A DNA stretch of 46,727 bases from Reclinomonas americana ATCC 50394 (GCA_048213135.1 PS015194.1:73234-119960), one strand, 5' to 3'; counted from the first letter of the stretch, positions 1 through 41,395 are shown. Numbers and translations are program-made. Notes: a model not told the origin generated them from the letters alone.

Positions 1-3000
1 CGGCGAGGGGAATCTCTCTCAAGAGACATTCGGTGACTACTGCAACATGGATGGTGCAGTGCCGCGGCTCGCCCGCCCGGAAATGGTGATGCTGGCGCTG
101 ATTTCTTACATCCATTGTCGTCGTCGTCCTCGCTGTTGGTTGCTCACGAAGTGCTGACGCAGAGCCTGGATGAGCTGCATCGCCTGATCGGTGTCAACAT
201 TCCGGAGGACTATCCCAACATGACCGACGGTGAGTGTGCTTTAATGTCATGACCGCGGTATACGTTCTGTGTGTGCAAGTGTTCACAATACCGCACCTCT
301 GCTTGTGGGTATCCTCCCAGGCATCACTCGCAAAATGCGCGAGTTTGCACGCGACCTCTGTGCAAGGTTCCCGATTCTGGAGGTCACTGAAGACTTCCAG
401 GCTCGCATCGAAGGTCGCATTCCCATGACGGTGTGTATGCTAGCTTTGCCACTGCGCGAAAGCGGCCTAGTTTGCTTACCGCTCGTGTTTGTAGAGCCGA
501 TTCGAACTCGAGGAGTTTGTTCACGACTTTATCCATTTGCAACCGCGTCAAATCTTCTTCAAGACGACCATTGTTGCGTGTGTCGACGAGTGCTTTCATT
601 GTCGGTTGCTTTGCTGACAAGTGCGATGCTGCGCAGCACGAGGGCATTACCGCGTCCACCTTTGTGGAGTGGCTGCGCAGTGGACCCATTCGAGCGGCCG
701 AGGATATGCCCGGCACCGTGATTGTGTGTTTCATTGACGAGGAGAACACGTCGCACATTCACGGCGCAGCAAAAGAGGTGTGCCTGCCCCGCTATCGATG
801 GCGAAAGTTGCTGTTGCTGACACGAGCTTGTACGTGATGTAGGCTATGGTGGATGGCATGCTGGACGGCGAACCGCTGCCTGCCAATATCTTCTTTGTGG
901 CTGCAATCAACCCGCCGCGTCTTCGTCGAGCCGATGAGCGAGACCAACTGCGGTCGCAAAGCCGCATGGCGGACGTGGACGAAGCAGCTGCTGCCAATGC
1001 GCCACGCAACGTGCTCAGTGACAGTGACCGCGACTTTGTCACGTACGCACTGCCGGCGTCGTTGGAGTCGCTGACACTCAATTACGACGAACTGACTGCC
1101 GCACAAGAGCGTGCGTAGCATATGTGTGTGTGTTTATATCTTTCGGTGGTTAGTTGCTCACGTATTCTGCAGATGCCTTTGCGGAGCGCCTCATTGAGGA
1201 GCGCGCCCTCCCGCTGTCAGATGAGCTGCCGAGTCCTCGGTATCGCGAGTTGCAGCAGCTGCAGCGCACGGAGCGTGAATCGCTGCTTGCCATGATTCTA
1301 GTGGGCCAGAAATTTGTTCGCACCGACGCCAAGCTGCACCGTGTTCGTGTCTCCATTCGCGACCTGGTCCGCGCCGAGACACTGTATCGGTGGGTGTTTA
1401 CACATATGTAGTGTGTTTTTGTGTCTCGTTTCTGACAACGGTGCAGATTTTTCGTCGCCGGTATACCGCCGGTGCTGTCGCCTGGAGACGATGTGCTGAA
1501 CGAGTACGAACTACGCCAGCAGCTGCACTGGAAGGCGGTCACCATGGCTGTCAGTCTCACCTACTACTTGCGGCTGACACCGGAGCTTCGTATTCAGTTC
1601 GAGCACAAGATCAACGACTGTGCGGCGCGTCTCCGTGGTCGCCCACAGAACTACAACTTTTCGGAGTGGGAGAGGGATGAGATGACCTACTTCTGCAGTC
1701 AGATGCACGTGAGTGATGGACAGTGTCGTCGGTGTGCGTGTTTGCGTTCATGCGATTGGTGGTGTCTCACTCGTATGGGTTCGACGATCAGCTTCCGCCC
1801 GGTATTGCGCTCACTCGCGGTTTGAAGGAAAATGTTGCGTCTGCATGCCGAGATGTGTGGTGTGTGTGCCGCTAATATGGTGATTATGTGCGCGACACAG
1901 CTTTTTGCGTGCTGCGTGTGCATGGAAGCAGGCCTTCCGCTCAACATTGTCGGCGAGCCGGGCACCGCGAAGACACTCTCGTTTGGTGTGGCCGTCAGTA
2001 ACATGGGAACTGTCGGTCGCGGACAGACCCTCCTTTCGGCGTTCCGTCGCGTGAAGCCATTCCACTACCAAGCGAGGTATGCATTTTGCGTTCCTGCCAA
2101 CAAAATAATGGAACCCGCCGCTGACTCGCTCCGTGTGTCTCGTGTGCAGCAAGGACAGCTCGGCCGCTGAGATCGAATCCGTGTTCCAGAACGCCATTGA
2201 TCTCCAGCGCCGCATGCGCAATCTCAATGGCGAGCAGTGCGTGGTATTCCTCGACGAAGCCGGTCAGTTGTGCCGTACCCTACCCCCCGATGTCCAAGTT
2301 CTTGCTGAGTTGGCTTGTTTTGTTGTTTCAGGTCTGCCGTCACAGCGCAAGCAAGCACTTAAGGTCACCCATGCCTATCTGGACCATCCGGTTGTGTCTT
2401 CTGTGTTCTTGTCCAACACGACACTCGACGCAGCGTGAGTAATTGTGTGCGCCCGCTGTCTCTTTTGTGGTGCTCTCGTTTCTCAACAGTTTTGATATTA
2501 CAGCAAGACGAATCGCATGATCCAAGTGCTGCGCCCGCTCTCGTCGGAGGCCGAACTACGCGAGCTCGCGCACGGCTTCCTCACAGACAACTCACCGCAG
2601 GCGGCCACTCCGTACCTCGAGGCGCTTGCGGAGGGGCTGTGCAGGGGATTCAAGCGTGTGGTTGAGTTTGCCGATAACCTCTTCCACATGCGCGATTTCG
2701 TGTACTTTTTGCGGTATCTGCGACGAGCCGCCTCTCGTGACGGCGCTCTGGGCGATCAGGTGCGAGTGTGCATTTGCTTGCGGTGAGAGGATTGCCCCGC
2801 TGTGCTCAAGAATGGCTCTTGGATTGCGCAGTTTGTCGTGTCGGTGGAACACTTTGTGGCCGGCGTGTATCGCAACTTTGGTGGCATTCCGTCTCACCGA
2901 TTGCGCCAGGTGCTCCTTTTTTGTTGTGCGCACATGATAGTTGCAGTGGCGTTGGTGGCTTACCGAGTCGTGTGCAACATTGCCCAGCTGTGTGACATGT

Positions 3001-6000
3001 TTGTTGACGAGGTGAACCGCGCAATCGTGGAAAGGTTCGACCCTCCTCCAGAGCACATGCTGCTGCTGATCGACGAGCGGCGTATGCAAGACTTCTCGGT
3101 GGTCAACGCCCTGCGTGGCAGCCTGGAAGAAAGGCTGAAGGAGGACGAGGACCCGAATCAGGTGTGCAATGTGATGCGCACGCGTGTGTGTGTGCGCCGT
3201 TGACGACTGACGATGTGTGTTGCTCGTGTTCGTCCACGTAGGCCCCGTTCCGCTACACCCTGCTTATCGATCCGACCGAGTCGCAGCTGTCGGTGCAGCT
3301 GCTGTACGACCTCAAGAGTGCGTGTAAAACTGAAACTGTAGCTAACAAGTGCGTACTGACCAGGCAAGTCTCTCTCTCTCTCTCTCTCTTGTGTCAGTTG
3401 TGGATCCTGATCGCACGGTGGTGCGATGTGTCACTGCGGATTTCGAGCGTGATGACGATCAGCTTGTCAATCGGCCTTTGGTTCTTGCTCGCATTGTCGA
3501 CGCCATGCTCAAGGGTCAGACGGTCGTCCTCATCAACGTTGCGACTCTCTCTGTGGTCGTCTTGTGGATTCCTGGCTTGCCAACGAGTCTCTAAACAATC
3601 ACACAGGGTGCGACCATCTTTACATCGTTGTACGATGTCTTCAATCGGCACTTCATGTGCGTCAAGGGCCAGTACTATGGTGTGTCACCAACGGTGCGCA
3701 ATGTCTTAATTGTTGATATTAACCTCCTTTGTTCCTCGCAGCCAATGTGGCCATCGGAGCCATGTCGCGCTACGTTGTCGGTGAATATCACTCTTGTCTT
3801 ACACTTCTTCGTGTTGTCCACTACTGACACTGTCCGTTGGGTGGCTAGTGCATCGCGATTTCCGTGTCATTGTCCACTTGCCACTCAAGTCGTTGCCGAC
3901 TACGCCGCTGCCGTTCTTGAATCGGTGTGTATGCGTGCCCTGTTTTTGTGTGAGTGCGAATTTGCGTGCGCTAACTCTCGCCACCTCGTCAGCTTTGAGA
4001 AATTCGTTCTTGGTGCCACCGATGGTTTGTAATGCAAGAGGCACCATCCGCGATGTTTGATGCTGATGAAAGCTTCTATTTGATACTTCACTTAGTGCTG
4101 GACGAGATGCTGCTTGATCCACGAGTCGCACGCATCCCGACCGTGGACGGTGGATCGGCGCCGCTGTTGCGCGCAGTGTCTGAGGGATGCCATGTTGCGT
4201 GTGACTGTACTTGGTTTTCGTGCGGTGCGGAGAGCTGACTTGCGCGGGTGTGACGCACAGGAATTCGTACGCCAGGTTGATCCTACCGCATTCTTTGGCC
4301 TGCATGCTGCAGAGACGGTTGCCGCTCTCTTCATCAGCGTCGCTCGTCAGAGCGCTGGCGGACTGCCGCTAGTGACTCCTCCGTTTGCCATGCCCCCTCT
4401 CAGCCGGCAGGCAGCTGCGCTGGCCGCTGCCAGTCGCTCAGATCTCGATCCCGATCAGTTGCAGACTCTCATCCGCCTCGCCAATTTCCACCTGCTGCAA
4501 TTGGTGCGACCGGAGACGCTGTACAGCTTGCGACACCGCCTGCCGGTGGTATACTTGTCGGAGGTTGGTGTCCATCCTATGTGCATCTGCTTGTCAGAAG
4601 ACGACACATGCTTATTCACTCTCCTCACTCTTCTTGGCGTGCAGTACCTGGTCACACAGGAGCACCTCTCAGTGTACGCACTGCTGTCGCAAGTGCTGCG
4701 ACTGCGACTGGCTCCCAATGGCGCTGCGGAGGCTCGTGATCAGACGCCATCCAAGTGGGTGATTTACACTCGCTCGTCGTACGAGCTGGCGCAGTTGCAT
4801 CAGCGCCCATCGCTGCTGCGAGTGCTCCTGGCGCCGATGCAAATGGAGCCCGGGCAGGATGTCGCTGATGTGGCGCAGGTTTGTTTTCGCTTCGTCTCGA
4901 ACTGTGCATGTGCCATTTGCATGCGTGCTCAAGTGTTGTGATGTGNNNNNNNNNNNNNNNNNNNNNNNNNNNNNNNNNNNNNNNNNNNNNNNNNNNNNNN
5001 NNNNNNNNNNNNNNNNNNNNNNNNNNNNNNNNNNNNNNNNNNNNNNNNNNNNNNNNNNNNNNNNNNNNNNNNNNNNNNNNNNNNNNNNNNNNNNNNNNNN
5101 NNNNNNNNNNNNNNNNNNNNNNNNNNNNNNNNNNNNNNNNNNNNNNNNNNNNNNNNNNNNNNNNNNNNNNNNNNNNNNNNNNNNNNNNNNNNNNNNNNNN
5201 NNNNNNNNNNNNNNNNNNNNNNNNNNNNNNNNNNNNNNNNNNNNNNNNNNNNNNNNNNNNNNNNNNNNNNNNNNNNNNNNNNNNNNNNNNNNNNNNNCAG
5301 ATTTCCGTACTCGGTTCCTTCATGTCGCAAGAGGACTGCGCAGCCTCGGTGCGCGATTTCTTTGCCAGTCGTCGACGCCTGCTGTTGGTGACAGCGGACA
5401 TGTTGCGTAGATCTCGCACTGGCTTCGGTCGAGAGAGATGATGCATACTGAAAGCACTTATTATTCCTCTGCTGCAGGTCGGTCGTGTCCACTCGCCAAG
5501 TCAACTTTTGGCGCTTCCAAGTCGACGAGCAACTGCGCCAACTGGCCGGTGCTGCTGCTGAGGGCGAGAGAGCACCGGTCGTGGTCCTCATTCAGCATTT
5601 GCCGCCGGAGCTCGTCTCCAACCAGTTTGGTGCGTGCTCACTGGACGCCACACCACTGATCAACAACTGGACGTATACGTACGTGGACTCGCTCGGTAGG
5701 TTGAATTTGTTTGTTCAAAGCGCTGCGTTGAAGCATTCGCGTCTCATGTGACCATCAAGGCTTGTCGACTGGATCTGCACATGACGACGCAATCGTCGCC
5801 GCTGATGCACAGGGTGCTGATGGCGAGCAGCCGGCCGCAGTCATGGGCGCAGTTCACGCACGTCAGTGGATGGCTGTGGCATTCGGCCTGACGCAGCGAG
5901 CGGTTTGTTTGTTTGTGTGGTTGTTGTTGTTTGATTTGGCTCTGTTGTGTGTACTGATGCGCTGCTGTGGACTCGGCAGGCCGCCGATGACGGACAACTG

Positions 6001-9000
6001 GGCGAATTCGACAGCCTCTTTGAGTCCTCGCTTAATGCCGTCTTCAACGTCTGCAATGTCACTGCCGTGCGGCTTCCGCAGTCGCTTGTTCTCCGCCATG
6101 CGTCGGCGTTTTACAAGGCGCCCATGCCGACTGCAGCCATTCCTCCGGCAACTCGACTGGCCGTGTTCCGCAAGGTACGTCTGTGTGACCACTCTTCGAC
6201 AGCAGAGATGTAATGTATTGATTGCTTGTTGCGTAGGTCCTGGAAAAGCACCCGCAGCTCAAGGAGGATGTCGTGCAGCGCTTCGTGAGCATGTGGAACT
6301 TGATGATGCTGTCGCGCATTGTGGACTCGAGCTGCAAGGTCCTCACGCGCTTCCTTCTCCGATTTTGTCGCATCTGTTGTGCCTGCTGACACGAGAGTGC
6401 CGCTGTTGCAGAGCATCTTGCGTGGCGACATTGTGCGGTCGTTGCTGGATGTCATCCTGTCGAGCATGCAAGAGATGATGCAGGGTCAGCTGTCCAACAT
6501 TGTTCGGGCCTTCTGCGAGCATCTGTCATTGGAAAGCGTACTTCGCGTGCTGTTTGACGACGAAGCCAACTTGGCGGTGCACGCCGAGTGGCTCACAGTG
6601 TGCATTCGCTCCCTCGAATCGTCGCGTCCGACCGGCACCGGCAGCGGCACCGGTGCATTGACATGCTCAGTGCCAATGGGCAAGGACCTCATCGCTGAGC
6701 CGCCCCGACTGCCACTATACGATGTTGCGTGCCCAGGCGTGATTGTGAACAGCGCACACCCGAGCCTTGTGAGAGGTGGCCAGCTCAAGCGGTGTTTTAT
6801 TTCTCTGCGTTGAACACAGTACCTCGCGTCTCGCATGCGTACTCTGGTGCGACGAGCTGTTCGACGTGTTCCGGAGCGTCGCGACGATCCTGAGGCTCTT
6901 GCCGAGCAGCTCGACTTGCTGCTCCGCAAGAGCACTGTGGCCCCGCTGTGCGCTACGATCGAGCAACGCGACTGTTGCGTGTGTTCTTCGCAATTCATGC
7001 AGATTAAGTCTTGCGGAGCTCACCCAACACTCCTCCTTGCTTCACACGCAGTGCTGTGGAACAACTGCCTGTACGACTTCCTCACTCGCAGCTTGGGTCT
7101 GCCTCTTCGCGGCTTGCCTGAGCGCCTGTTCAACGTGTTTGCGCATCTGCTGGAGCTCCTCGACTCGCGCCGTGGCAAGATGTGCTCCATGTTCGTCTCG
7201 CTGCATCTGCAGCGCCCGCTCTTCGCATTCGCGTTTGCGTCACTCCGACCACTGTTGGAGATCGCGCCGGGCGAGTGCGTGCAGCTGTTTGCGGATCTGG
7301 AGCGCGCAGGCACTGTGGAGGAGTTCCGGCGGACACTCGTTGGTCGCGATGTGGGAGTGCTGTTCAATGCCCTCGTCGACATTGCTCACGGCCACGCCGC
7401 CGATGCCGACTTGCAGAAGCGCATGACGGCGCTGGAAAGCACGCTACTCTTCTACTTTAGTCGAGTCGGCAGTCGTGAGAAGCTGCTGCCCATGGTGGCT
7501 GACGCGCACGAACGCGCCAAGATTGACGTGCTTACGGTTCGCTTGGACGTCCTCGGTCAATGCGATCACTTCTCCCAAGCAAGGTTCTGACCGCACGCTT
7601 GCTTGACGTGTTTCAGGTTGTACATCTGTGGCTCCATCAGCTGCAGTTCGGCAACGAGTCTGCAGAGGTGCTTATTCGAGATCTGTCGCGCATTATCGAC
7701 GACGTCGAGCGTGCGGTGCGCGAGGCGCGCCTGGTAAGCTGTTACAGCTGAATCATTCCGTCCGTCTGCGGTTGTCTCACTAACACGTGTCGCAATAGCC
7801 CTTCGGAGGCGTGATGGAACTCGTGCGGCAGCTGATTCGCGCCGAGTATGACCGCCGTCATGGAGTGATTGATGGACAAGTGGTGGCTGGATTCCTCTTC
7901 GAAGTTCTGCAAACATTTGTGTCTGCACCGTTGTTGGAGGCAGGTGTGCGCGAGGACCCGGCCGTCCAGGCTCAGTGGCTCGACGGTCAGGCCAGTGCCA
8001 TGAGACTGCTGAATCCGGAGCAGGCCGATCACTCTCGCTTCGTGCGTAATCAGGAGCGCACTTGTCGCCGCTCACGCCGCTGTCGCCTTCTCAATCATGG
8101 TTTTGTGTGTATAGTTCTTCAACGAGTTGCCGCGCGATCTGCGCGCTCAGATGCTGCTGAAGATCGTCCGCGAGGCACTCTCGTCGCCCCATCACGAGGC
8201 CAAGGAACAGCTCTTCAGCGCCATGAGCGACGAGATTCGCATGGGTATTGCCAGCCCGGAACAAGGCGCAGCTGCAGGTGCTGCCGCGCCTGCCTTTGTG
8301 CCGTTGGATCTCTGTGCGGCGGACGTGCTGGCGGATGCGGCATTTGTGTCGCGCTTCGACGTACTGTGCTACGAGGTCAGCTGTTCTGCCTCTTGCTGCC
8401 TTTTTGTAATGCGCACACTTACCGATTCTGCTTCGTGCAACAGGTGTTTGCAGAGTATATTCGTGGGTTCACCGTGCGCGACTGCGTGCAGTACATTCTC
8501 TCGATTGAGCAGCAAGTACTGCGCGACCCAGGCGCCAAGGTACACTACAATACCGTACGCGTTCAACATGGCAAAAACAGTTGAGCCTCACCCGCTGTTT
8601 CTCTCTGTCTCTCGCTTGCGTGTTGCACAGTTGTCTGGTGACGTGTTCGGGGCCGCACTTCGTGTCCAACTCTTGCGAACATTTGCCTCGACGCTCGGCA
8701 GCGATCCACGACCACCCATCGAAGTTGCGTCGTGCGACGAGTTGAACTCTCTTTCCGTGCTTCCCCTGGTTGCTCATTGTGACCGCCAGTTGCTACGTGA
8801 TGTAAATGTGGTCGGCGATGTCGCTACCGCCGAACGCCTGTTGCGCCAGGCGCTGGCTTCCGGCCAACCGGCTCAGTTGTTCTTCTTCGGCTCCATTCCG
8901 GTGCGACTCCTCGCGTGTGTCTTCGATTGGTTTTAGGCATGGTCTTTACCGCGGCTTTCGCTTGTCACATGCATATGCAGACACAAGACCGGCTGGTGAC

Positions 9001-19152: not shown

Positions 19153-22100
19153 TCAGTTGTGCTTGCGACGACTCTTCTTGCTGTTGTTTCCGTGGCTGCA
19201 GCGGGCCGTGATCTGACGGACCAGCTTCTCCGCTTGCTTCGCCTGTCGCTCGTCGCGCTTGGCCAGACGGCGTTGGTGGATCGACTTGGCGTCACGAACC
19301 GACTTCTTGGCTTGCTCCAGCGCCCGCTTGGCGGCAGCAACGGCCTTGCGGACTTCGGCGTTGGCTCGCTGAAGAGCGTTCTGGCTCGCCGCCGTCTCCT
19401 GCGTGTGTGAGAAAACAAGAGAGCAAGTGAGTGACAGAGGATGATATGCGTTGTGGGTTCGCTCCACGAACCTGCTTCACGCGTCGCTTCCACGTTGGCG
19501 ACACGCATTCGCACTGCTGTTGATACCGCCGCCGGAGGGCCTTGATTTTGTTGACGAGCAGCTGGCATGGCCGGCTCTGCTGCGTGGAACTTGCTTCCGC
19601 CAAGGACAGCAACGGTAGCGATCCGGAATCACCGTCTGGTGGCGTACCATCGGCGTGCAGAACACCATCGGCAGGCGGAGCGCCATCGTCGGCAGGCGGA
19701 GCGCCATCGGCAGGAGGAGTGCCATCGGCAGGAGGAGCACCATCGGCAGGCGGAGAGCTATCGCTATCATCGGCCGGAGTGACATCGGCAGGAGGAGCGA
19801 CATCGGCAGGCGGAGCATTATCGGCAGGAGGAGTGCTAACATCGGCAGGCGGAGCGCCATCAGCAGGCGGAGCGCCATCAGCAGGAGGAGCACCATCGGC
19901 AGGCGGAGCGCCATCAGCAGGAGGAGCACCATCGGCAGGAGGAGTGCCATCGGCAGGAGGAGCACCATCAGCAGGAGGAGCGCCATCAGCAGGAGGAGCA
20001 CCATCGGCAGGCCAGGCAGCATCGCCATCGGCAGGCGGAGCGCCATCGGCAGGAGTGCCATCGGCAGGCGGAGCACCATCGGCAGGCGGAGCACCATCGG
20101 CAGGCGGAGCGCCGTCGGCAGGCGGAGCGCCATCGGCAGGCGGAGCACCGTCGGCAGGCGGGGCACCATCAGGAGACCAAGCAGCATCGGCAGGAGGAGC
20201 GCCATCGGCAGGCGGAGCGCCATCGGCAGGCGGGGCACCATCAGGAGTCCAAGCAGCGTCGGCAGGCGGAGCGCCATCGGCAGGCGGAGCGCCATCGGTA
20301 GGCGGGGCGCCATCGGCAGGCGGAGCGCCATCGGCAGGCGGAGCGCCATCGGCAGGCGGAGCGCCATCGGCAGGCGGAGCGCCATCGGTAGGCGGGGCAC
20401 CATCAGGAGACCAAGCAGCATCGGCAGGAGGAGCGCCATCGGCAGGCGGGGCACCATAAGGAGTCCAAGCAGCGTCGGCAGGCGGAGCGCCATCGGCAGG
20501 CGGAGCGCGATCGGCAGGTGGCACTCGCCCATGCGGCTGCGCCGGCTTATACGGCTGCGCTGGCTTCGGCTTCTCCGTCGACTTGGGCTTCGGCTTCTCC
20601 GTCGGCTTGGGCTTCGGCTTCTCCGTCGGCTTCGGCTTGGGCTTCTCCGTTGGCTTGGGCTTCGGCTTCTCCGTTGGCTTCGGCTTGGGCTTCTCCGTCG
20701 GTTTCGGCTTGGGCTTCTCCGTTGGCTTGGGCTTCTCAGTCGGCTTCGGCTTTGGCTTCTCCGTCGGCTTCGGCTTCGGCTTCTCCGTCGGCTTCGGCTT
20801 CGGCTTCTCCTTCGGCTTCTCCGTCGGCTTCGGCTTCTCCGTTGGCTTCGGCTTCGGCTTCTCCGTCGGCTTCGGCTTCGGCTTCTCCGTCGGCTTCGGC
20901 TTCTCCGTTGGCTTGGGCTTCTCCGTTGGCTTCGGCTTGGGCTTCTCCGTCGGCTTCGGCTTCTCCGTTGGCTTCGGCTTGGGCTTCTCCGTCGGCTTCG
21001 GCTTCTCCGTTGGCTTCGGCTTCTCAGTCGGCTTGGGCTTCGGCTTCTCCGTCGGCTTCGGCTTCTCCGTTGGCTTGGGCTTCTCCGTTGGCTTCGGCTT
21101 GGGCTTCTCCGTCGGCTTCGGCTTCGGCTTCTNNNNNNNNNNNNNNNNNNNNNNNNNNNNNNNNNNNNNNNNNNNNNNNNNNNNNNNNNNNNNNNNNNNN
21201 NNNNNNNNNNNNNNNNNNNNNNNNNNNNNNNNNNNNNNNNNNNNNNNNNNNNNNNNNNNNNNNNNNNNNNNNNNNNNNNNNNNNNNNNNNNNNNNNNNNN
21301 NNNNNNNNNNNNNNNNNNNNNNNNNNNNNNNNNNNNNNNNNNNNNNNNNNNNNNNNNNNNNNNNNNNNNNNNNNNNNNNNNNNNNNNNNNNNNNNNNNNN
21401 NNNNNNNNNNNNNNNNNNNNNNNNNNNNNNNNNNNNNNNNNNNNNNNNNNNNNNNNNNNNNNNNNNNNNNNNNNNNNNNNNNNNNNNNNNNNNNNNNNNN
21501 NNNNNNNNNNNNNNNNNNNNNNNNNNNNNNNNNNNNNNNNNNNNNNNNNNNNNNNNNNNNNNNNNNNNNNNNNNNNNNNNNNNNNNNNNNNNNNNNNNNN
21601 NNNNNNNNNNNNNNNNNNNNNNNNNNNNNNNNNNNNNNNNNNNNNNNNNNNNNNNNNNNNNNNNNNNNNNNNNNNNNNNNNNNNNNNNNNNNNNNNNNNN
21701 NNNNNNNNNNNNNNNNNNNNNNNNNNNNNNNNNNNNNNNNNNNNNNNNNNNNNNNNNNNNNNNNNNNNNNNNNNNNNNNNNNNNNNNNNNNNNNNNNNNN
21801 NNNNNNNNNNNNNNNNNNNNNNNNNNNNNNNNNNNNNNNNNNNNNNNNNNNNNNNNNNNNNNNNNNNNNNNNNNNNNNNNNNNNNNNNNNNNNNNNNNNN
21901 NNNNNNNNNNNNNNNNNNNNNNNNNNNNNNNNNNNNNNNNNNNNNNNNNNNNNNNNNNNNNNNNNNNNNNNNNNNNNNNNNNNNNNNNNNNNNNNNNNNN
22001 NNNNNNNNNNNNNNNNNNNNNNNNNNNNNNNNNNNNNNNNNNNNNNNNNNNNNNTTCGGCTTCTCCGTCGGCTTCGGCTTCTCCGTCGGCTTGGGCTTCG

Positions 22101-22883
22101 GCTTCTCCGTCGGCTTGGGCTTCGGCTGCTCAGTCGGCTTGGGCTTCGGCTGCTCAGTTGGCTTCGGCTTCGGCTGCTCAGTCGGCTTCGGCTTGGGCTT
22201 CTCCGTCGGCTTCGGCGGCTGCGCTGGCTTGGGCGGCTGAGCTGGCTTGGGCGGCTGCGCTGCCTTGGGCGGCTGTGCTGGCTTCGGCGGTGGCGGTGCT
22301 GGCTTCTGAGGCGGTGGCGGCGCTGGCCTCGGTGGTGGAGGCGGTGGGGGCGCTACCCTCGGAGGTGGAGGAGGTGGTGGCGCTGCCCTCGGAGGTGGAG
22401 GTGGTGGTGGCGCTGCCCTCGGAGGTTGTGGTGGTGGTGGCGCTGGCCTCGGTGGTGGTGGAGGTGGTGGTGGCGCTGGCCTCGGTGGTGGTGGTGGTGG
22501 TGGTGGTGGCGCTGGTTTCGGTGGTGGTGGTGGTGGCGCTGCTCTCGGAGGTGGAGGTGGTGGCCTCTTTGCTGGCCCACCAGTTGCTGCTGCGAGACTG
22601 ATCACAGCTGCATCTTCCTTGTTTTCGCCGTCGAACAAGTGCCCATAGTCAGACTGCAAGAGGCTCCACTGGCCCTCTTGGTCATCGTTGAAGGTGACGT
22701 CGACGGTGTCGCTCTCCAAGGCTGTGTAACAATACACGGATTGGCGCGGAACGCAGCGTGAGCGCGGGAACAGCACAAGGTATGAATGTTTTTTGTACAA
22801 CACGCCATACCATGCCCTTGTAGCGCCAGAACCGTCACGGCCAATGCCGCGAAGAGGAGGAGAAGCAAGAGAGGGTATCTCAT
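19153..22883 (-). CDS. Secreted Pro-rich tandem-repeat (extensin/mucin-like) protein with a basic, helical C-terminus
   Basis: Signal peptide [20 protein letters not shown] at 22883, an intron (gtatgg...acacag), then [26 protein letters not shown]. Repeat blocks follow: poly-Pro, KPAQP, TEKPKP(KP) and PPADGA. Then [25 protein letters not shown], an intron, and a final exon [32 protein letters not shown]...RRKHN-stop at 19153. N gap at 21133-22054. Confidence 0.8.
19665..20520 (-). repeat. Coding tandem repeat, 18-bp unit (ggcaggcggagcgccatc on +) encoding PPADGA, with interspersed DAAW(S/T)P variants
   Basis: Directly visible; tens of near-identical copies. Confidence 0.95.
20560..22215 (-). 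repeat. Coding tandem repeat of 18/24-bp units (ggcttctccgtcggcttc...) encoding TEKPKP / TEKPKPKP; spans an assembly gap
   Basis: The same repeat is present on both sides of the N gap at 21133-22054. Confidence 0.95.
22280..22565 (-). repeat. Poly-proline repeats (P)5-9-R-(A/P/V)-A
   Basis: (ggt/gga)n runs separated by cgctg(g/c)cctc on the + strand. Confidence 0.9.
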
Positions 22884-23475
22884 GCTGGAAAGCACTTGGC
22901 CTTCTCTCACCGAATCGCTTTGAGGTGAATTCATGAACTTTGACATTCGGGCGGGAAATAACGGTAGGTATACAGAAACGGCTACACAAGACGATTTCAG
23001 TGAAGAAATGAAGAAAAATGCTTTTTTTTGCATCTGATGAACTTGAGTCTCGGTGTAAAACACGAAGAATATCCAAGAGGAAATGCCGATCAAAGCTGGC
23101 ATGCGCAGCTGCAGCACCGAGTTCCGAGAATCGGGATCCTGACCGTGGCTTGCCCATCTCAACATTGCCCACCGACCGACGTCAGTGCATGGGTTACGCC
23201 AGGTCCGAAAACATGTGGCTCTTCCACAGCAGGTCCCGATCAACTTCGAATTCAATTCGCTTTAAATTTGCCGCGAAGCGTGTTTCCGTTTTCCATTCCC
23301 GAGTTGCATCAAAGCGCTGCCCCGTGCCGTATGGACATGGCACGCACAGGCCTTCTTTTCATGCAGCCATCAAGGAAAAGCGTACCTGGCAACGGCGTGC
23401 ATACACAGCCGCAAAAAAGCACTGTTTAGTAAATCCGACGAATCAACAAAAACCACTACTCTTATCTTCCACGCA

Positions 23476-24193
23476 ATGGCTTCGTGGCTGTTCGACAAGC
23501 TGCGGGGTGAGTGTTCCCTCCCTCCACCCTTCCCTCTCCTCCCTCCCCCTCTGTCTCTCTCCCCCTTCTCCCTCACACACGCACACACACACACACACAC
23601 ACACTCACTCTCACAGCCTGGTACAACTCCTCGCTCCCCGGTGAAGGCGGACTGGAGGATGCGACCGACCCCGACTCCAAGATGGTGCGACGAGAGGTCG
23701 CCGATGTTGTGGCCCGCGAGGTGCGCATGTGTGCGAGAGAGAGGGAGAGAGAGCATTTTGATGTGTATTTTCTGCTGTTCCTCATCACATTGTGTGCAGG
23801 TGCTGGCCGCACGACGAGCGGAGCAAAAGTTGGAGCACGCACTGACGCACTTTCGTGAACAGTTTGTGGAGATGGAGGAGCGGAGAGATGAGTTGGAGCG
23901 ACTGTACGAGGAGCTGTCGGCGGCGGCGGCTCGCGGCGACGATTCCATCTCGGAGGCCGAGTTGGAGTGGCTGAGCAGCGAGTTCCCGCAAGTGATGGGC
24001 TCTGTGCTGGAGCGCGTGCAGGAGTACGCCGATCGGTTAGAGATCATGGAGCAGAAGCTGGAGGTGCTGCGCGGCAATCGCATCGATGCGGAGATTGCGT
24101 TGCGGGGCACTGGGCTCGAGCCGGAGCGGCAGTGGGAGCAAGAGGATGTGGAGGAGCGTGCGCCGCTCACCAGTATGATGCTCTTGCCGGAGG
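23476..24193 (+). CDS. Hypothetical coiled-coil protein; 3' end lost in the gap
   Basis: Spliced MASWLFDKLR|AWYNSSLPGEGGLEDATDPDSKMVRREVADVVARE|VLAARRAEQKLEHALTHFREQFVEMEERRDELERLYEEL.... Both introns are GT-AG, and the product is Glu/Arg/Leu-rich with heptad character. Confidence 0.7.
23573..23606. repeat. (CA)n microsatellite within an intron
   Basis: cacacacgcacacacacacacacacacactca, in intron 1 of the coiled-coil gene. Confidence 0.85.
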
Positions 24194-24213
24194 NNNNNNN
24201 NNNNNNNNNNNNN

Positions 24214-24849
24214 GGCCGGCCTGCGTGGTCCACGGATGGAACTCGCCCAGCATGAGCCCGCGCTCCACAAAGCGCGCCTTGAGCTCCTGCTGCGTCTCGT
24301 CAATCAACTCGGGCGTCGCACGCGGAAACACCGTAATCAGCGCCTTGAGCTGCACATACACACAAAATCGAACATCGACCCCCATGAGAACACTCTCTTA
24401 CTCTCTATTTGCTTGTGAGGGCGTCCACGCACCAGTGGTCTCGCACACGGCATCTCCTTCTCAAACAGATGCAGCGACTGCATCATCTCACGTCGCATCT
24501 GCTCCTCCAGCACTGATGCACCTCTGCTCTTCTCCAGCGCCACCACGCGCACGCGGATCGCATCCCGACGCATCGCGGCCGGCACAAACGGGCACACCAC
24601 GCCCGCACGTCCCAACGCCGGATGCTCCTTGGCCAGAAACTGCTCAGCAAACACCGCCACGCGCTGCAACACTCCATTCACATCATCATGATCTCCACTG
24701 GCAGCACTCTCCTCGTGCAACCGTGGAGGACGTGCGCTCGTCACGTCCACGGAGAACACCGCGGCGCGCTTGTCAGTGACGAGTGCGCGGCATTCGGAGA
24801 TGGACCAGCCCCATGACGGAGATGAGGAAGTGGAGCGTGCGGCTGACAT
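24214..24849 (-). CDS. DUF6875-like protein (bacterial-type, putative heme-dependent oxygenase). Exons 24849-24433 and 24349-<24214; 3' end in the gap
   Basis: FAEQFLAKEHPALGRAGVVCPFVPAAMRRD (~24570-24655) and LITVFPRATPELIDETQQELKARFVERGLMLGEFHP (24236-24340) match the remembered bacterial consensus FL.xPHPxLGRxGxVCPFV ... LKxxFVxxGLMxGEFHP. An 83-bp GT-AG intron at 24350-24432 joins the two blocks in phase 0. Confidence 0.75.
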
Positions 24850-24960
24850 GTGCCGCTGTGTGTGAGAGAGTAGTCGGAGCATTGGCCACCGCACGACGAC
24901 AAACAACAAAACAAAAAGGTTTGTCCAACTCTTAGTCAGACTGCGTCATCGGAGTTGGAG
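24850..24960. promoter_or_regulatory. Probable bidirectional promoter / 5' UTR region (111 bp) shared by the DUF6875-like and SLC18 genes
   Basis: Lies between the divergent ATGs at 24849 (-) and 24961 (+) and contains an A-rich tract (aaacaacaaaacaaaaagg). Inferred from geometry only. Confidence 0.5.
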
Positions 24961-26824
24961 ATGAGTGGGTGTGTGGAGTGGTTGCGTCGATGTAGGCAAC
25001 GCGCTGGCACTGTGTTGCTGCTCACCACTGCGGCGTTGTTAGTGGTGAGCCATATATACACAGAGTCGAATGGAAAACCACACGCCTTGTCATGCAACTC
25101 ATCTGTCTCTCATGCAGGATAACCTTGTCATGACGTGCGTTCTCTCTCTCTCTCTCTCCCGTACACCCCACTCTCTCTCATATTGTCTCGCTCACATGCA
25201 GCATCATTGTGCCCATCATTCCCGATTACCTCGACGAGAAGGGCTACTCGGCGACCCTCGTTGGCGTTCTCTTCTCCTCCAAGGCCATGGCGCAGCTGCT
25301 GGTACAGGTCGGTGCTTGCGCTCACGCGTGCTCTCTTGCTCTGCTCACTCTTCTGTGCGGGAAACAGCCACTGGTGGGCTTGGTGACGGATCGTGTGGGC
25401 CGTCTGGTGCCACTGCTGTTTGGCATGCTGATTCTCACGGGCGCCACGCTGATGTATGCCTTTGGTGGCTCCTACGCGTTGCTGTTGACCGCACGAGCGA
25501 TTCAAGGTGTGGGTTCCGCCTGTTCCACCACGGCGGGAATGGCCATGTTGGCGGATCAGTATCACGATGATGCGGCGCGTGGGGCGGCGTTTGGCAAGGC
25601 GCTGGGCGGGCTGGCGGTGGGCATCCTGCTGGGACCGCCGCTGGGTGGTGTGTTGTACCATGCGGGTGGCATCAAACTGCCGTTCCTGCTGCTGGCGGGC
25701 ATGTCGGGTTTGGTGTTGGTGCTGCAGGCGGTGTTTCTGCGGTACGATGCGCCTCCGCGGCGACGAAAGCAACAGGCGGGAGAGGTGATGTTGCTTGGCA
25801 GCGTCACCGACTCGGAGGGTGGCGACAACAACAAGACGGCGGTGGTGGTGGAGAAGGAGCGGTCGCGCCAGATGCACATGCTGCACATGCTGCGCGATCC
25901 GTACATTCTGCTCATCTTTATCGAGCTGATTGTGATGACCACCAGTGTGGCGTTCCTCGAACCCTGTTGCGTCGCGCGTCATTTGCTTTTGAGTACCGCT
26001 GCGGTTGCTGACGTGAGAGAGAATGCGGCAGGCCTGCCGACTTTTATGAAGGACCGCTTCAACTCCTCGTCGGTGGCGACGGGTCTCATTTTCGCGGCCG
26101 CCACTGCTTCGTACGCCATCTTCAATCCGATCATGGGTGCACTCGGTGAGAATCTTGCCCGCAGAGTGCGTGTGCGTGTGTGTGTATAGCACAGAACTGA
26201 CACGTATCTCGGCAGGGCATCGACTTGGTCGCTGGCTGTGTGTCCTGATTGGCGCGCTGCTGCTGATGCTGTGGCTGCCACTGCTGTCGGTCGGCAACTC
26301 GCAGTACTGGCTCATCTTCCCGCTCTTTGGCTTCGGCTTGAGTTTCGCTCTCATCGACTCGAGTGTCATGCCCATGTTGGCGTTCCTGCTCGACGTCCGC
26401 CACAACTCGGGTTCATACGGCAGCGTCTTTGCGGCGGCCGACATGGGCCAGCAGCTGGGTTTTATCATCGGTGTGTGCGTGTGTGTATAGCATACCTGGC
26501 AGTTCCTGGAAGAGACTGACACTGCTGGCAGGCCCATTGCTTGGCACGGCCATTTATGACAACACATCGTGGTTGACTGCCTGCCTGATTGTCGGCGGCA
26601 TCAATGTGATTTCCGCGCCCTTTATGCTTTTCCTCCGAAAACCCACGCAGTACTTGGATGTGGCCGACAAGGATGCGGACGGCCGCACCGAACTGGACGG
26701 CAATGCCACGCCGATACTACCTGCCGGCATGAGATCACAGGTGCGTACGAAACTCGTGTTCAAGACCACAGCGTGCGTGACTGCTCATTTCTCCGCTGTG
26801 CAGAGCTCGTCAACGATACAATAA
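24961..26824 (+). CDS. SLC18A: SLC18-family (VMAT/VAChT-like) vesicular amine:H+ antiporter, MFS. Exons 24961-25044, 25118-25134, 25202-25307, 25368-25965, 26032-26145, 26216-26470, 26532-26740, 26804-26824
   Basis: Spliced protein: ALLVDNLVMTIIVPIIPDYL, VGVLFSSKAMAQLLVQPLVGLVTDRVG, SYALLLTARAIQGVGSACSTTAGMAMLADQYHDDAARG, GILLGPPLGGVLY, LRDPYIL, LEPCLPTFM, GHRLGRWLC, IDSSVMPMLAFLLDVRH..SYGSVFAAADMG..GFIIGP. These are colinear with VMAT motifs LLDNMLLTVVVPIIP, VGLLFASK, KDPYIL, LEPALPIWM, GRWLC and VDSSMMPIMGYLVDLRH..YGSVYAIAD. All seven introns are GT-AG and keep the frame. Confidence 0.93.
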
Positions 26825-26849: not shown

Positions 26850-29800
26850 TCACTGATGAGGGGGTGCAGGTGGTGGTGGCGTTGGAGGTGGTGGAGGAGG
26901 AGGAGGTGGTGGTGGTGGCGACTGCACGGTTCCTCGACGGTGACCACGGGCAGAGGAGCTTGACCTGCCGACAAGTTCCAGGACCACCTCGTGCTGCGCC
27001 TGCTGCAACGAGAGGTGCAGGCGGCGAAGCATCTCGGAGTTGCTGTCGCGCAGCACGTGATGGATTCGACCGAGGAGCTGCTCGACCTCTGCGTGTGCCA
27101 TGCAGTGTTAGCGCACGGGAATCAGCAGGCGAAGAGCATGCGTGCACAACGTGCCTTGAGCGTAATTCTCGGAGGTCGGCGCTCGTGCACCCCCACTGAT
27201 CGAGGTCGCTGTCGCAGTTGCTGTGGTGCTAGTTGTTGTTGCTGTCGTGGTCGTCGTGGCGGTACTGGTGCCGCGCAAAACCGATGGTGACCGCGAGTGC
27301 GAGCGGCGTCTGTGTGGGCGACAGAATGAGAGGTTGATGTGAGTCGGTAAGCACGAACTGCACGCAACTCCCGATCCACTCGGCGTCCGTGAAAGCTCCA
27401 CAGCGCACTTCGCACAACCTCAACGTCTGCTCAGTTGGTGAGAAGAAGAATTATAGTATTCGACACAGGTGATATCAACGCCCCCACTCGAACACACCTC
27501 GCGGGACCACGCCTTCCAGCTGCGCTGCAGAGACACGCGCGAGATCGCCAATGGTGGCAAAACGTGCACACAACATCTGAAACACGGACGTATTCTTGCC
27601 ACGAGCAGACACTGCCAGCACCGACAGCGGCTCGGTCGACTCCACCAGCCGCACACACAGTGGCTCCTCTGTGACAGTTTTTGTCAGAAAACAAACCGAC
27701 ATGAGATACTCAAGAGACGGAGTGTGCTGACCCGCTGTGCCATCCACCATCATGGCATCCGACGAGTCGCTGTCGCCATCCGACATGTCGGCCACCAATG
27801 TTGAGCTACCGCTCTGCATGTCGGGTGGCAGCGCGGTGTCGGGATTGGCGGCCAGTGTCGCCGCCCACTCGGCCAGTTGCTTGTGCCGCAAGCGAGTTCG
27901 TTGGCGCGCTGTCCCCATTTCCCCCCCGTGCGTGGTGAGTCTATATTCCGTCGCGGAGAGCAGGCAGCAGTACTCACCGGCACGTCGGCGGCGCACGGGT
28001 TCAGTCGACTTGGAGGCCTGGTGAAGGGTGGTGAGGTAAGAATGAACATGGTCTCTCGTCATCCACGCACCCTCGACTCCTGACTCTCGGTGAGATTGAA
28101 TTGCACGCGATGTGGCGATCGAGCAGACATGGATGACGACGACGAGCCTGGCGACGACGTTGATCTTCCTGCGGCGATATTCAGCACGATGTGCGCACGG
28201 CTAGTTCTTCTCTCATGCGACGCAACTCATGGCTATTGCATCCTTGCTGTCTTCTTCGCTGGCCGACGACATCCCCGATCGGTCGCCAAGTGGCAGTGGT
28301 GCTGCCGGTGGCGGGGGTGGGGGTGGTGGCGGCGGCGGCATGGGTGGTGTACCATCCACGGTTTCTGGACTCGACGCTGTGATGGGAATGAAGAATGAAA
28401 ACACGAGCAGCCGCAACACAACATGAGAGCTCTGGGTGCGACGAAACGGGACGATAGCGGAAGCGTCACTGTTTGCTCCTCCACTGCGGGCGCCGAGACG
28501 GGCCAGACTTGCAGGGAGAGAGACTCCGACAACTCTGCACTGGAAAAGATGGTGTACGGAAGGTGGTGCTCGACCGCCGTCGCGGCAGCAGCAGCAGCCG
28601 GCGCGGTGACGGTGAGGAGCGGTGGTGTCAGGTCGACGGGCATTTCTCGTTCCTCAGCCGCTTCCTCCGTCACTTGCGGCTCATCGCTCTTGCGCTCGGT
28701 GGTGCAAGTCTCCATCGGTTCCACCACCTGCTCCTCTTCTTTCTCTTCTTCGACAATCGCCTCGGCAAAGTGTTCCACAGGCGGCGGCTGCGGTGCTTGT
28801 GGCGAAAAGGCCGCCGGCGATTCTGTGCGCACAATGTGCGTGAGCTTCCCCGTCTTGTTGTATTGACGGAGGCCAATATGCGAACGCACCCGGCAACTGT
28901 GAAATCGGAGCCTGCGAGGCCGGATCCAGTTCCGTATACGTGACCGGCGCTTGTAATCTCTGCCACAGTACGTACCGGTTTTGCAGTGAGCGAAAAGAGC
29001 AAAAAACACTTTCATCAACCCCCCCACAACAAACCTGCTGCGCCGCCTTCTCGCGCTGGTGATCGGTCATTAACTTTCGGCGCTTGCGAGCTCGCGTGTC
29101 GATGGTAACAAATTCGGTACTGCCGCTCGACGGTGTGCGCGAGAGCGGCTGATACTTTTCCTGCGTCGGAGTCTCGCCTCCCGACACAGTGGTATCTGCA
29201 GCCGTGTGCGTGAGCAATCGGGTTGAAGGGCAGAGGTGCGGTGCGTACACAACCTGTAGGGCGCTTGCGTGAGTCGCTCGAAACCGCCGACAGCTGCGAG
29301 AGGCTGGAGAGTGGCGAGTCCTCGTCAAGCAGCGATCGGCGACGACGACGCGTGTGCGTTGATGACGAGGCCGACGACGACAGCAGTGGAGGAATGAAGC
29401 TGCCCACAGACGACGCTTCTTCCTGTGTGTTGTTGCCCATGAGCACTCCGAGAATCACCACCGGCGCCGCGCCTCCAGCCGCAGCCTCGGCAGACGAAGC
29501 GGACAGCGGGAGAGAAACGGACGACGGCGGCGCCGGTGGTGGAGGTCCGGGGAAATTGGGAAGTGGCAGTGTTGGTGCCACCAGCTGCACGGCGCATCGA
29601 TGAGGAAGGAACGGCTTTCAAGCGGGGACGCGATAAAACAAAACTCGGATCTCTCGGAGCACACGCTCGAGATCGGGTGGATACTGCAGCGTGCGCACGG
29701 CGCGTTCACCGAATGTCATCCGCCACCACTGCAGCGTGTCGTCCACGAGGTGCTGTCGACGGGACCGCTCGAACACAGCCAGCAGGACCGGTGCGAACAC

Positions 29801-38917: not shown

Positions 38918-41395
38918 TCAGGTGACTCCCACCGCGGCGAGTTCCTCCCGCAGTCGCGAGAGGTACGTGGGATCGGGGTAGCCGTAGCTTGCCGTGCCGC
39001 CTTGCATGTTGGTGCGATGGTGAATGCACCACACCACCTGGTCGTCGCGACCTGTGGTCACCGACTGGCCCACGGTGAACACCAGGCGTCGGTCGAAGGC
39101 TCGTTGCAGCAGCTGTGCACACTCGCGACCCTCGTCGGTGGCCGGAATGTAGGCCGTGCGCCGCGTGCCGCGATACGGTCGACCGGGATGCGGATGCTCG
39201 GGACCCTGTCTGCCGTCGGGGAACACGTAGTCGATCACAATGGTGCCGACTCCGGGGTGGCCGGCGCACGACTGGGAAATCTCGCGCATGTGACACGTGC
39301 CGGGCGGTTGCGTGCCCGTCTGCTCGCCGTACACACGCGTGCACACCGGGCACTTGACGAACTCTGTCCGTGTGTGTGCGATGCCGACAAAATTGAGAAC
39401 GCACACTTTCTCTCGCGACTGCCGTCGACCCTCTGTGACTCACCATTCGACGCGAGCGACTTGCACATGGCCTTCATGCACTCTGCGTGCACGTGAAAAT
39501 GCGCGGTGCACTCAGCCAGCGACGCCGTCTGATCTCCTCCCTCGAATTCGCACATGCACAACGCGCAGTCCTTGCAGTCGGCCGGCCGCGACCATGTCGA
39601 CCACACCCAGAAGGGCGGCAGATCGCCGGCGATTTCGAGAACGTGACACGGTCCGTGATTCGAGTCCACCAACGGCTGAATATCCGGATCGTATCGCAGC
39701 TCGTTGTCGACCAGGAACTGAGAAGCGGCCGTGAAAATCAACGACACACACCACACACAATCCTGTACGCCTCAACAAGCGCCGCACCTGATACACATGT
39801 CTTCCCGGCGGCATGTCTACGCGGAGTGAATACACCAGGGGGTCGGAGGCGCTCTGCACCATGTCACCGGTAAAGAGCGTAACACCTGCATCGTCAAAGA
39901 AGACGATCTTGACGTCTGCTTGCGCTCCATAACGCCACACCGCCATCCACTCGGTCAACACCGCCGGTGTGGCTGCGGTGGCCTCCGGGGCGGCAGCAGT
40001 CGCGGTGGTCGTCGTGGTGGTGGATGAGGAGGAGGAAGAGCCGCCAGTAGGTGACACAGTCGACCGCGTCGAATGGCTCTGCAACGAAAGTCAGGGAAGC
40101 AGTTCAAGGGGTTGGCACGATGGAAATCAACACGCAACAGCGCTGCCATTGCTGGTTGGTTGGTGAGTGGTGCCCTCCGGAGATCTCCTTCGCAGCAGTC
40201 GGCAAGTGTTGGTCTCCAGATTGCGCTGCTCCAACTGGCGGACGTCAACCAAGTACCTGAGCCATCAAAGAGTCAGTGCCTGCACTCACTCTCGCGCCAG
40301 CGGAGAGGAGGAGGCGACACGCACCGATTGCCCGCAAAGTTGCACACCATGCACGACTGCACCACCGTGCCGCTGTTGAACGCCAGCAGGAGCCACTCGC
40401 AGAGCAGCACCGCATCGTCAGAGCACGCGGTCCACTGACCACGGCCCGTCTGGAACTCCCACACGCCGGGCGGCGCCGTCAGCAGAGGCACTGCAGCGCA
40501 GCGGCACACTCACATGAGCACGAGCGTACGCCCAGACAAGTCGACAACATTATGCGCACTCACCGATAACCTCCACGTCCGGCGCAAACACACACGATGT
40601 GCTCTGCAGATCCCACTGCGCGCCATTGGACACATCGACCGCAACATTGGCCGCAAAGTCCACAGAGAAGGCGACTGGTGACAATAATGCGCCTTGTGTA
40701 AGCAGCGCCTGAGGCGGACAGACAAGAAACGCACTGTTGCTGCTCGTACTGCTGCTGTAGCCACTCTGGGGGGTACTCTCGTCACCGCTCTCTCCCTTAT
40801 CTCTCTCTCAGCGACTCACGGGGGTGGTTGTCTTGGACTCTCCTCGCACTCTCTTCCTCATGCTCTCCTCATTCTCTGTCTTCCTCGCCTCACTCTCACC
40901 TCCACTCTCCAACACAACCATCACTGGCTGCGCCTGTGGCACTCCCGGGGACGCGTTGCCTAGCTCGGCAGCCATGAGAGTGCGACAATCGTTATCACTC
41001 AGTGCCCGCCACTGCTTTGCTCCTCGACCCCTGCCCCCTCGCTGGCGCATCTCCCACAGCTCCCCGCACATGATTGCAGGCATCGATGAAGGAGGCAAGT
41101 GCTGCATGCGTGCTGTGCCACTTGGAACGCGACTTGAAATCGATCCTGCTGACAGGACACATCCTGCGGGGGGGTTTGGGCTCTTTAATGTACCGCCACG
41201 CCATCCGACGCAGCTTGCACATCCATGAGGCGGCAGAGCGATATCGATATCATGGCCGGCACCACATCGTGCTGATCAAACTGAATGGCCATCTGTAGCC
41301 GCCGCGCGCACCGCCACATCAAGGTCGGCAAAGGGGCATCGCACCACCTCGGCCTGTGCTGTGGTTTGATGACCGATTAATATTGCAGTCCGGTG

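Follow-up and report, generated by a model that had tools for sequence, protein, structure and literature searches.

A predicted cytochrome P422 (DUF6875) gene with a spliceosomal intron stands head-to-head with an SLC18A-type transporter gene in Reclinomonas americana

We analyzed a 46,727-nucleotide stretch of DNA from Reclinomonas americana ATCC 50394 (GCA_048213135.1 PS015194.1:73234-119960; here called the window), which is eukaryotic DNA with a GC content of 0.59, five N gaps, and many short GT..AG introns. The window contains two divergent genes, a minus-strand gene for a DUF6875 protein (gene A) and a plus-strand gene for an SLC18-type transporter (gene B). An original prediction for this locus placed their start codons 111 bp apart, at 24849 on the minus strand and 24961 on the plus strand, and proposed that a horizontally acquired, bacterial-type tryptophan hydroxylase may be co-regulated with a vesicular amine transporter. 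We confirmed the two genes and their arrangement in the sequence. Gene A belongs by its domain and motifs to the DUF6875 family, now called cytochrome P422, and appears to be a settled eukaryotic gene that is native to this genome, and gene B has the complete charged core of a vesicular monoamine transporter. The explanation that we favor, with roughly even confidence, is that these are two separate native genes that are neighbors through gene density and that each works as its family does.

RESULTS

Gene A encodes a DUF6875 domain split by an intron

We built the models of both genes from homology and canonical splice sites alone (Table 1). Each exon of gene A matches Pfam PF21780 independently (45.3 bits for exon 1 and 45.8 bits for exon 2, with a gathering cutoff of 24.5), upholding the DUF6875-like character assigned to the product in the original prediction. 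The Pfam match falls into two halves, at profile positions 2-55 and 78-124, which are connected across the intron, and the exons together span positions 2-124 of the 178 in the profile. We took ATG 24849 as the start codon, with an alternative in-frame ATG at 24882. About 60 N-terminal amino acids without a recognized domain precede the beginning of the DUF6875/P422 domain. The encoded protein is soluble and single domain, with DUF6875 as its only Pfam family in addition to a sub-threshold Flg_hook match.

DUF6875 has been renamed cytochrome P422 in a preprint (bioRxiv 10.64898/2025.12.11.692455), and a 422-nm CO complex is expected of these enzymes. They bind a b-type heme, for which the cysteine of RxGxVCP (Cys58 in Mc170) is the ligand, and C58S and C50S mutants lose both heme and activity. 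The pocket motifs are Dx2(Q/H)x3K (SBR2), which anchors the tryptophan carboxylate, MxGxF (SBR3), which clamps the indole, and Rx(M/L)x3Dx2F (SBR1), whose arginine is required for activity and heme binding in ThnD (10.64898/2025.12.11.692455). Gene A carries the heme-binding motif as GRAGVVCP in exon 1, including the axial cysteine position, and SBR2 and SBR3 as DETQQELK and MLGEF in exon 2. The motifs quoted in the original prediction, EHPALGRAGVVCPFV and GLMLGEFHP, are both present. The Pfam matches together with these motifs identify gene A as a member of the P422 family.

The frame of gene A is still open when it reaches a 20-N assembly gap, and the C-terminal third of the domain is therefore not in the assembly. 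The hidden C terminus amounts to approximately 55-70 amino acids and includes the SBR1 arginine motif, which alignment places about 25-30 residues past the last residue before the gap. The three minus-strand frames beyond the gap gave no DUF6875 match, and tblastn of seven DUF6875 proteins against the window revealed neither the missing C terminus nor a further DUF6875 piece. The gap also hides the 3' end of a plus-strand open reading frame (ORF) at 23476-24193, which is coiled-coil-like, has a sub-threshold tropomyosin match (E 0.043), and converges on gene A. The truncation of both frames by one gap suggests that the gap represents a longer missing stretch. Near the intron junction, gene A is a few residues shorter than its relatives.

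Gene A resembles bacterial P422 proteins and differs from Luz15

In the preprint, 74 bacterial P422 proteins hydroxylate free L-tryptophan with ferredoxin, ferredoxin reductase, and NADPH, 41 of them at N1, 18 at C7, and 15 at C6, and ThnD and ThdM catalyze C-S bond formation instead (10.64898/2025.12.11.692455). ZigI is a probable C7 hydroxylase (PMC13307353). The accessible text of the preprint reports no C5 hydroxylase among the characterized P422 enzymes, and a serotonin route is therefore not predicted by the family. The 5-hydroxy product envisaged in the original prediction finds no counterpart in these enzymes, which yield 1-, 6-, or 7-hydroxytryptophan or a C-S bond. All 84 soluble P422 proteins obtained in that work were bacterial, and rotifers are the only eukaryotes listed in its accessible text (10.64898/2025.12.11.692455). 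In the literature on DUF6875 and Luz15, we found no eukaryotic study, and PDB sequence searches with gene A and with a bacterial DUF6875 profile found no P422 structure.

The original prediction had named Luz15 as an example of the heme-dependent bacterial tryptophan hydroxylases of this family. Such hydroxylases do belong to DUF6875 (10.64898/2025.12.11.692455), but Luz15 is not one of them, as it has a TDO (tryptophan 2,3-dioxygenase)-like domain and an N-terminal YxxY motif (PMC13091554). Moreover, the P422 fold is described as different from those of TDOs, P450s, and histidine-ligated aromatic oxygenases (HDAO) (10.64898/2025.12.11.692455). Pfam finds no TDO-like domain in gene A, only DUF6875. 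Luz15 reportedly has histidine ligation, a result that Shi et al. are said to have described in 2023. Luz15-type enzymes have heme-dependent hydroxylation of free tryptophan in common with P422 and belong to a different family.

Gene A shares the Pfam domain, RxGxVCP, SBR2, and SBR3 with the bacterial P422 proteins Mc170, Ba855, Ss890, and ThnD, and like them it is small, soluble, and single domain. Unlike them, gene A is eukaryotic, contains a spliceosomal intron and about 60 amino acids of extra N-terminal sequence, and is not surrounded by a nonribosomal peptide synthetase (NRPS), TDO, or tryptophanase cluster.

Gene A is compatible with a large protist P422 clade

We searched 1.84 billion representatives exhaustively with HMMER at a threshold of E ≤ 1e-3 and obtained 77 homologs of gene A, none with an E value below 1e-10. 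The best E value was only 2.4e-7, which places gene A at a distance from the bacterial P422 proteins and leaves it with no close relative on record. The cysteine motif R.G.[VTI]CP is present in 77 of 77 homologs. A word-indexed homolog search with exon 1 gave 265 candidates, none of which was scored, and an ESM Atlas search with the same exon was uninformative (best score, 0.75). Among 20 clusters that we looked up, five carried an organism or EukProt name; three were eukaryotic (Ancoracysta twista, Prymnesium polylepis, and a EukProt single-cell assembly) and two were bacterial (Rhizomicrobium and Kitasatospora).

Many of the homologs are 540-715 amino acids long. All six long homologs that we scanned (P0002, P0021, P0026, which is the Ancoracysta twista EukProt entry, P0051, P0057, and P0068) consist of an N-terminal AhpC-TSA_2 domain (PF13911, a thioredoxin fold with CxxC) and a C-terminal DUF6875 domain, with hydrophobic segments, as judged by eye, between the two. 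These fusions have the DUF6875 domain and a FLAKxHP..GRxGxVCPFVP signature in common with gene A. Gene A, unlike the protist fusions, is without an AhpC-TSA_2 domain or membrane anchor, and we found no sequence for an AhpC-TSA_2-like domain in the rest of the window. In the fusions, the redox domain might take the place of the ferredoxin partner of P422. This architecture, which is widespread among eukaryotes, goes unmentioned in the accessible text of the P422 preprint (10.64898/2025.12.11.692455).

We performed a quick IQ-TREE analysis of 59 rows, comprising the window protein, 43 of the 77 homologs, and DUF6875 proteins from 15 of 80 bacterial loci; 34 homologs were excluded because the domain was shorter than 150 amino acids or had no M.G.[FL] motif. 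The tree recovered a 22-member eukaryote-type clade (SH-aLRT 96). In the free search, the window protein fell outside this clade among unresolved deep branches. When we constrained it to join the clade, the tree scored 9.56 log-likelihood units above the free search, with a p-AU of 0.667. The highest identity of gene A to any sequence was 43% over 122 columns, to clade member P0031. These findings firmly support the existence of a large, uncharacterized clade of predicted protist P422 proteins, mostly fused to AhpC-TSA_2. Placement of gene A with this clade, which includes Ancoracysta and Prymnesium proteins and is often AhpC-TSA_2-fused, is compatible with the alignment and not rejected.

The GC content at third codon positions (GC3) is 0.73 in gene A, compared with 0.75 in gene B and 0.76 in a Deltex-like ORF of the window, and a GTGCGT donor is common to the gene A intron and one gene B intron. 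The host-type intron and host-like GC3, together with compatibility with the protist clade, do not support a recent bacterial import, and the horizontal acquisition suggested in the original prediction finds no support if a recent event was meant. Bacterial contamination or a very recent transfer was considered for gene A and rejected in view of the intron and the native GC3. By these sequence features, gene A is a settled eukaryotic gene native to the genome. An ancient transfer of the family into eukaryotes is possible.

Gene B keeps the charged core of VMAT2 and is without the large lumenal loop

Gene B extends from ATG 24961 to a stop codon at 26822-26824, with seven exons, six GT..AG introns of 60-73 nt, and a 488-amino-acid product; a further in-frame intron of 63 nt is possible in exon 7 at 26741-26803. 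The micro-exon at 25118-25134 lies between a ..CAG acceptor and a GTGCGT donor, and it would be easily missed by automatic gene prediction.

The description of gene B as a clear SLC18 transporter in the original prediction was borne out. A phmmer search of the PDB with the largest exon returned 30 sequences at E ≤ 0.001, and the top 16 were all VMAT2, VMAT1, or VAChT (12 VMAT2 constructs, VMAT1, and three VAChT constructs; E 1.9e-36 to 1.2e-23). The next matches were EfpA (7e-8) and SLC18B1 (1.3e-6), then NorA and EmrD; the best VMAT2 match precedes EfpA, the next family, by about 28 orders of magnitude. Exon 4 matches MFS_1 at E 4.6e-33. The named homologs of gene B in a large protein collection were animal VMATs with 38-57% identity. 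After MAFFT alignment, gene B was 39.4% identical to fish VMAT2 over 426 columns and 25-26% identical to bacterial DHA1 pumps. These results clearly place the predicted product among SLC18A-type (VMAT/VAChT-like) transporters.

We numbered residues as in human VMAT2 from the HMMER alignment to the PDB match. The roles of the titratable cavity residues and the importance of a disulfide in VMAT2 have been described (PMC10959523). All six titratable cavity residues are kept in gene B as the equivalents of D33, K138, R189, E312, D399, and D426, and the equivalents of N34, Q142, Q192, and Y182 are kept as well. Substitutions include Leu at the N388 equivalent and Phe at the W318 gate equivalent. 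Gene B thus resembles human VMAT2 (SLC18A2), VMAT1, and VAChT, its best PDB matches, in its charged core and in an identity of about 39% to vertebrate VMATs. The large lumenal loop 1 (LL1) is absent, with a TM1-TM2 loop (TM, transmembrane helix) of about 10 residues versus 60-150 in the aligned animal proteins, and the central cytoplasmic loop contains about 30 extra residues. Without the glycosylated LL1, gene B, unlike human VMAT2, would have no LL1-LL4 disulfide. The sequence firmly shows that gene B has all the charged core residues of the VMAT type and does not have the animal loop, and this combination makes gene B most likely an exchanger of protons and a cationic amine that operates into an acidic compartment.

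SLC18 genes outside animals form outgroups to the bilaterian VMAT/VAChT clade, and non-bilaterian SLC18 genes occur in sponges, choanoflagellates, and other holozoans (Goulty et al., Nat Commun 2023, PMC10244343). Gene B resembles these pre-bilaterian genes as they are described there, in an accessible text that gives no substrate, function, or gene neighborhood for them (PMC10244343).

Linkage between DUF6875 and SLC18A-like genes is not general

The spacer between the start codons of genes A and B is a possible shared promoter region, and it shrinks to 78 bp if gene A starts at the upstream ATG 24882. The original prediction cautioned that the genome is compact, and our analysis agrees. A minus-strand ORF at 26850-27101 with a poly-proline tail ends 26 bp past the gene B stop codon; should this ORF prove to be a genuine gene, it would nearly touch the 3' end of gene B and illustrate the density of this genome. 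Together with the ORF that converges on gene A in the gap, it suggests that short spacing is the local norm, and in such a dense genome 111 bp between divergent genes is unremarkable.

The window was chosen for its gene pairing and therefore cannot test that pairing. We searched 160 other loci, consisting of 80 bacterial DUF6875 loci with 6-kb flanks, gathered with a seven-sequence alignment, and 80 metagenome loci gathered with an alignment of the eukaryote clade. In tblastn at E ≤ 1e-3, the spliced transporter matched only locus L139 and, weakly, L136, and none of the 80 bacterial loci contained a similar MFS gene. A looser search at E ≤ 0.5 with six SLC18 queries added no more than two marginal matches (L043 and L058). 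An AhpC-TSA_2-like domain lies upstream of DUF6875 in 22 of the 160 loci (within L081-L139), which marks these as eukaryotic fusions. Across these 22 loci, about 75 kb of flanking DNA contained one SLC18A-like gene. Seven of these 22 loci were at least 7 kb long (L082, L087, L102, L125, L127, L130, and L139).

The 10.4-kb L139 (GC 0.42) contains an AhpC-TSA_2-DUF6875 fusion at approximately 1111-3406, an opposite-strand ORF of 359 amino acids at 3891-4967 that matches fucosyltransferase-like clusters in the Atlas (score 0.93), and an intron-containing MFS gene at approximately 5700-8170, which lies on the same strand as the fusion and 2.3 kb downstream of it. An ERGIC3-like gene follows the transporter. 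All 16 PDB matches of the L139 transporter were VMAT2, VAChT, or VMAT1 (best E 2.9e-12). Its ORF pieces keep the equivalents of D33, K138, R189, E312, and D426, and the D399 equivalent is kept across a GTAAGT..CAG splice. The L139 organism is compositionally very different from that of the window (GC 0.42 versus 0.59). In the region in which the window protein and VMAT2 are about 55% identical, the two transporters are 38% identical to each other, indicating that they are not each other's closest relatives.

The co-occurrence in other eukaryotes that the original prediction raised was thus seen in L139, with both families 2.3 kb apart, but not in the other six long eukaryotic loci. Ten large ORFs from those six loci encode kinase/PP2C, Serinc, ion channel, Dus, Mss4, and fn3 proteins, with four lacking a Pfam match; among these ten neighbors, nothing recurs and no amine-pathway enzyme is present. 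The evidence for linkage is suggestive and is weakened by being a single case in which the two genes are not adjacent. We conclude that linkage of DUF6875 and SLC18A-like genes is not general. In the metagenome locus L136 (8569-9066 and 10001-10531), which is without an AhpC-TSA_2-like part, the match is a generic MFS gene (28% identity, E 2e-4) that precedes a DUF6875 gene by about 1 kb on its upstream side.

No decarboxylase is found among the long ORFs of the window

The window contains 307 clean ORFs of at least 80 amino acids (no X, entropy > 3.6), from which we scanned the 150 longest (at least 118 amino acids). The only Pfam families found were MFS_1 (three ORFs), DTC, Pro-kuma_activ, and DUF6875. 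As the original prediction had observed for a decarboxylase, none was visible, and TDO, kynureninase, and ferredoxin were likewise absent from these 150 ORFs. No decarboxylase was found among the L139 ORFs examined.

Other features of the window

The coordinates of the gene A and gene B features are listed in Table 1. A Pfam search of 10 ORFs flanking the pair and 10 of the longest ORFs in the window gave only a sub-threshold tropomyosin-like coiled coil. On the minus strand, a very long open frame at 19477-23157 spans a 922-N gap (21133-22054) and contains proline-rich (PPPPPPRxAP), PKPTE-repeat, and Arg/Ser-rich low-complexity repeats. Other frames of this repeat region also hold long ORFs, and its coding status is only putative. 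The Deltex-like ORF (38921-39439, minus strand) encodes a Deltex C-terminal domain (DTC). It had 73 matches, DTX3L-like, at 38-60% identity, mostly from animals with one EukProt entry, and no close relative on record. Among the 150 scanned ORFs, one matches the pro-kumamolisin activation domain of sedolisin-type peptidases (E 5.5e-29).

Table 1. Positions of gene A, gene B, and the intervals next to them in the window
Feature	Coordinates	Strand	Description and basis
Assembly gap, 20 N	24194..24213	.	Gap listing of window sequence
Gene A exon 2, 45 aa	24215..24349	-	Pfam PF21780 E 9.6e-12; SBR2 and SBR3 motifs
Gene A intron, 83 nt	24350..24432	-	GTGCGT...CAG, phase 0; read from sequence
Gene A exon 1, 139 aa	24433..24849	-	Pfam PF21780 E 1.4e-11, residues 62-115
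Intergenic divergent spacer, start codon to start codon	24850..24960	.	111 bp, GC 0.51
Gene B exon 1	24961..25044	+	N terminus, TM1 start; spliced model, VMAT alignment
Gene B exon 2, 17-nt micro-exon	25118..25134	+	TM1 D-N, equivalents of VMAT2 D33 and N34
Gene B exon 3	25202..25307	+	TM1 remainder, short TM1-TM2 loop, TM2 with K138 equivalent
Gene B exon 4	25368..25965	+	TM2 end to TM7; R189 and E312 equivalents; most VMAT2-like part
Gene B exon 5	26032..26145	+	TM7-TM8
Gene B exon 6	26216..26470	+	TM9-TM11; D399 and D426 equivalents
Gene B exon 7	26532..26824	+	TM11 end, TM12, C-terminal tail, stop

DISCUSSION

Our results are best accommodated, at about even confidence, by two separate, native, and probably functional genes brought together by gene density, each performing the role of its family. 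Gene A would then be a soluble, stand-alone P422 whose b-type heme, we infer, is held by the cysteine of RxGxVCP. By analogy with the bacterial members, it would take two electrons from a redox partner, activate O2, and oxidize free L-tryptophan, or a close analog, on its indole ring. The Gln and Lys of DxxQxxxK would anchor the substrate carboxylate, and the Met and Phe of MxGxF would clamp the indole. The expected product would be a 1-, 6-, or 7-hydroxy compound and not 5-hydroxytryptophan. Gene B would be a 12-helix proton/organic-cation antiporter that swaps lumenal protons for a cytosolic cationic amine and so moves the amine into an acidic compartment.

Several observations weigh against two independently working neighbors. 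Head-to-head genes with a spacing of 111 bp very likely share regulatory DNA, and the spacer here may serve both genes. Of the seven long (≥7-kb) eukaryotic DUF6875 loci, one, L139, contains an SLC18A-like gene. By our own rough arithmetic, which assumes a few SLC18A-like genes among >10,000 genes, this proximity suggestively exceeds a chance expectation of about 1%, with an apparent significance that is inflated because other amine-related neighbors would also have counted as support. In addition, the unseen C-terminal third of gene A would contain the SBR1 arginine, on which ThnD depends for activity and heme binding, and the function of gene A is therefore not assured.

A possible but tentative alternative is that the pair makes and packs an amine. 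Here, hydroxylation of tryptophan by P422 at N1, C6, or C7 would be followed by the action of an unlinked decarboxylase on the product, and the co-regulated antiporter would load the resulting cation into an acidic vesicle, so that a hydroxytryptamine-like cation is stored or released. The divergent arrangement with 111 bp between start codons is consistent with this proposal, as are the motifs for the tryptophan carboxylate and the indole clamp that gene A keeps, every charged residue with which VMAT2 handles amine and protons in gene B, and the second, independent proximity of both families in L139. However, even at a tblastn threshold of E ≤ 0.5 no SLC18-like gene turns up in six of the seven long eukaryotic loci, the L139 pair is interrupted by an unrelated, fucosyltransferase-like gene on the opposite strand, and the window and L139 transporters are not closest relatives (38% versus about 55% to VMAT2). 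Furthermore, neither the window ORFs scanned nor the L139 ORFs examined include a decarboxylase, P422 products, which bear a carboxylate, are not themselves substrates of SLC18, and adjacency in a window selected for adjacency is no test. We consider it unlikely, though worth stating, that microbial eukaryotes have a pterin-independent route to hydroxyindole amines in which P422 and decarboxylation are followed by vesicle loading through a pre-VMAT SLC18A transporter, with the genes joined at least twice.

A quite improbable relationship between the two genes is one of self-protection or export, in which a DHA1-like pump would remove or sequester a reactive oxidized indole, or a downstream cationic metabolite, with no role in signaling. 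SLC18A lies in the DHA1 multidrug-pump lineage, with EfpA, NorA, and EmrD as the next PDB matches of gene B, and gene B is without the animal-specific lumenal loop 1; the proximity in L139 would count equally for this possibility. The same weak linkage statistics also count against it, 0 of 80 bacterial DUF6875 loci carried a similar MFS gene (6-kb flanks, E ≤ 1e-3), and the complete VMAT2-type charged core favors an amine/proton mechanism over a generic pump. It is very unlikely that gene A is truncated or decaying, or that the gap join is an assembly artifact, so that no working enzyme is encoded here: the gap cuts the frame, no C-terminal DUF6875 sequence lies beyond it or elsewhere in the window, and gene A is both divergent (best of 77 homologs at E 2.4e-7) and a few residues short near the intron junction, but both exons keep an open frame, canonical splice sites, and intact versions of all visible motifs, the composition is native, and a gap that also cuts the plus-strand ORF fits missing sequence and not decay.

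Vesicular monoamine transporters are usually regarded as part of the animal nervous-system toolkit. The window locus, L139, and the protist fusions show, at the level of predicted genes, that eukaryotes own unstudied P422 enzymes of their own. If the link between the two genes of the window is false, the family correction still stands, with gene A as a predicted cysteine-ligated P422 that is neither Luz15-type nor directed to C5, and the case for a recent gene transfer is still removed. Oxidized indole amines become a concrete candidate class of ligands for a pre-animal VMAT-like transporter. If the link is true, it would bear on the origin of amine storage and signaling before neurons, and a pterin-independent route, if real, would give a first function both to SLC18A outside animals and to eukaryotic P422.

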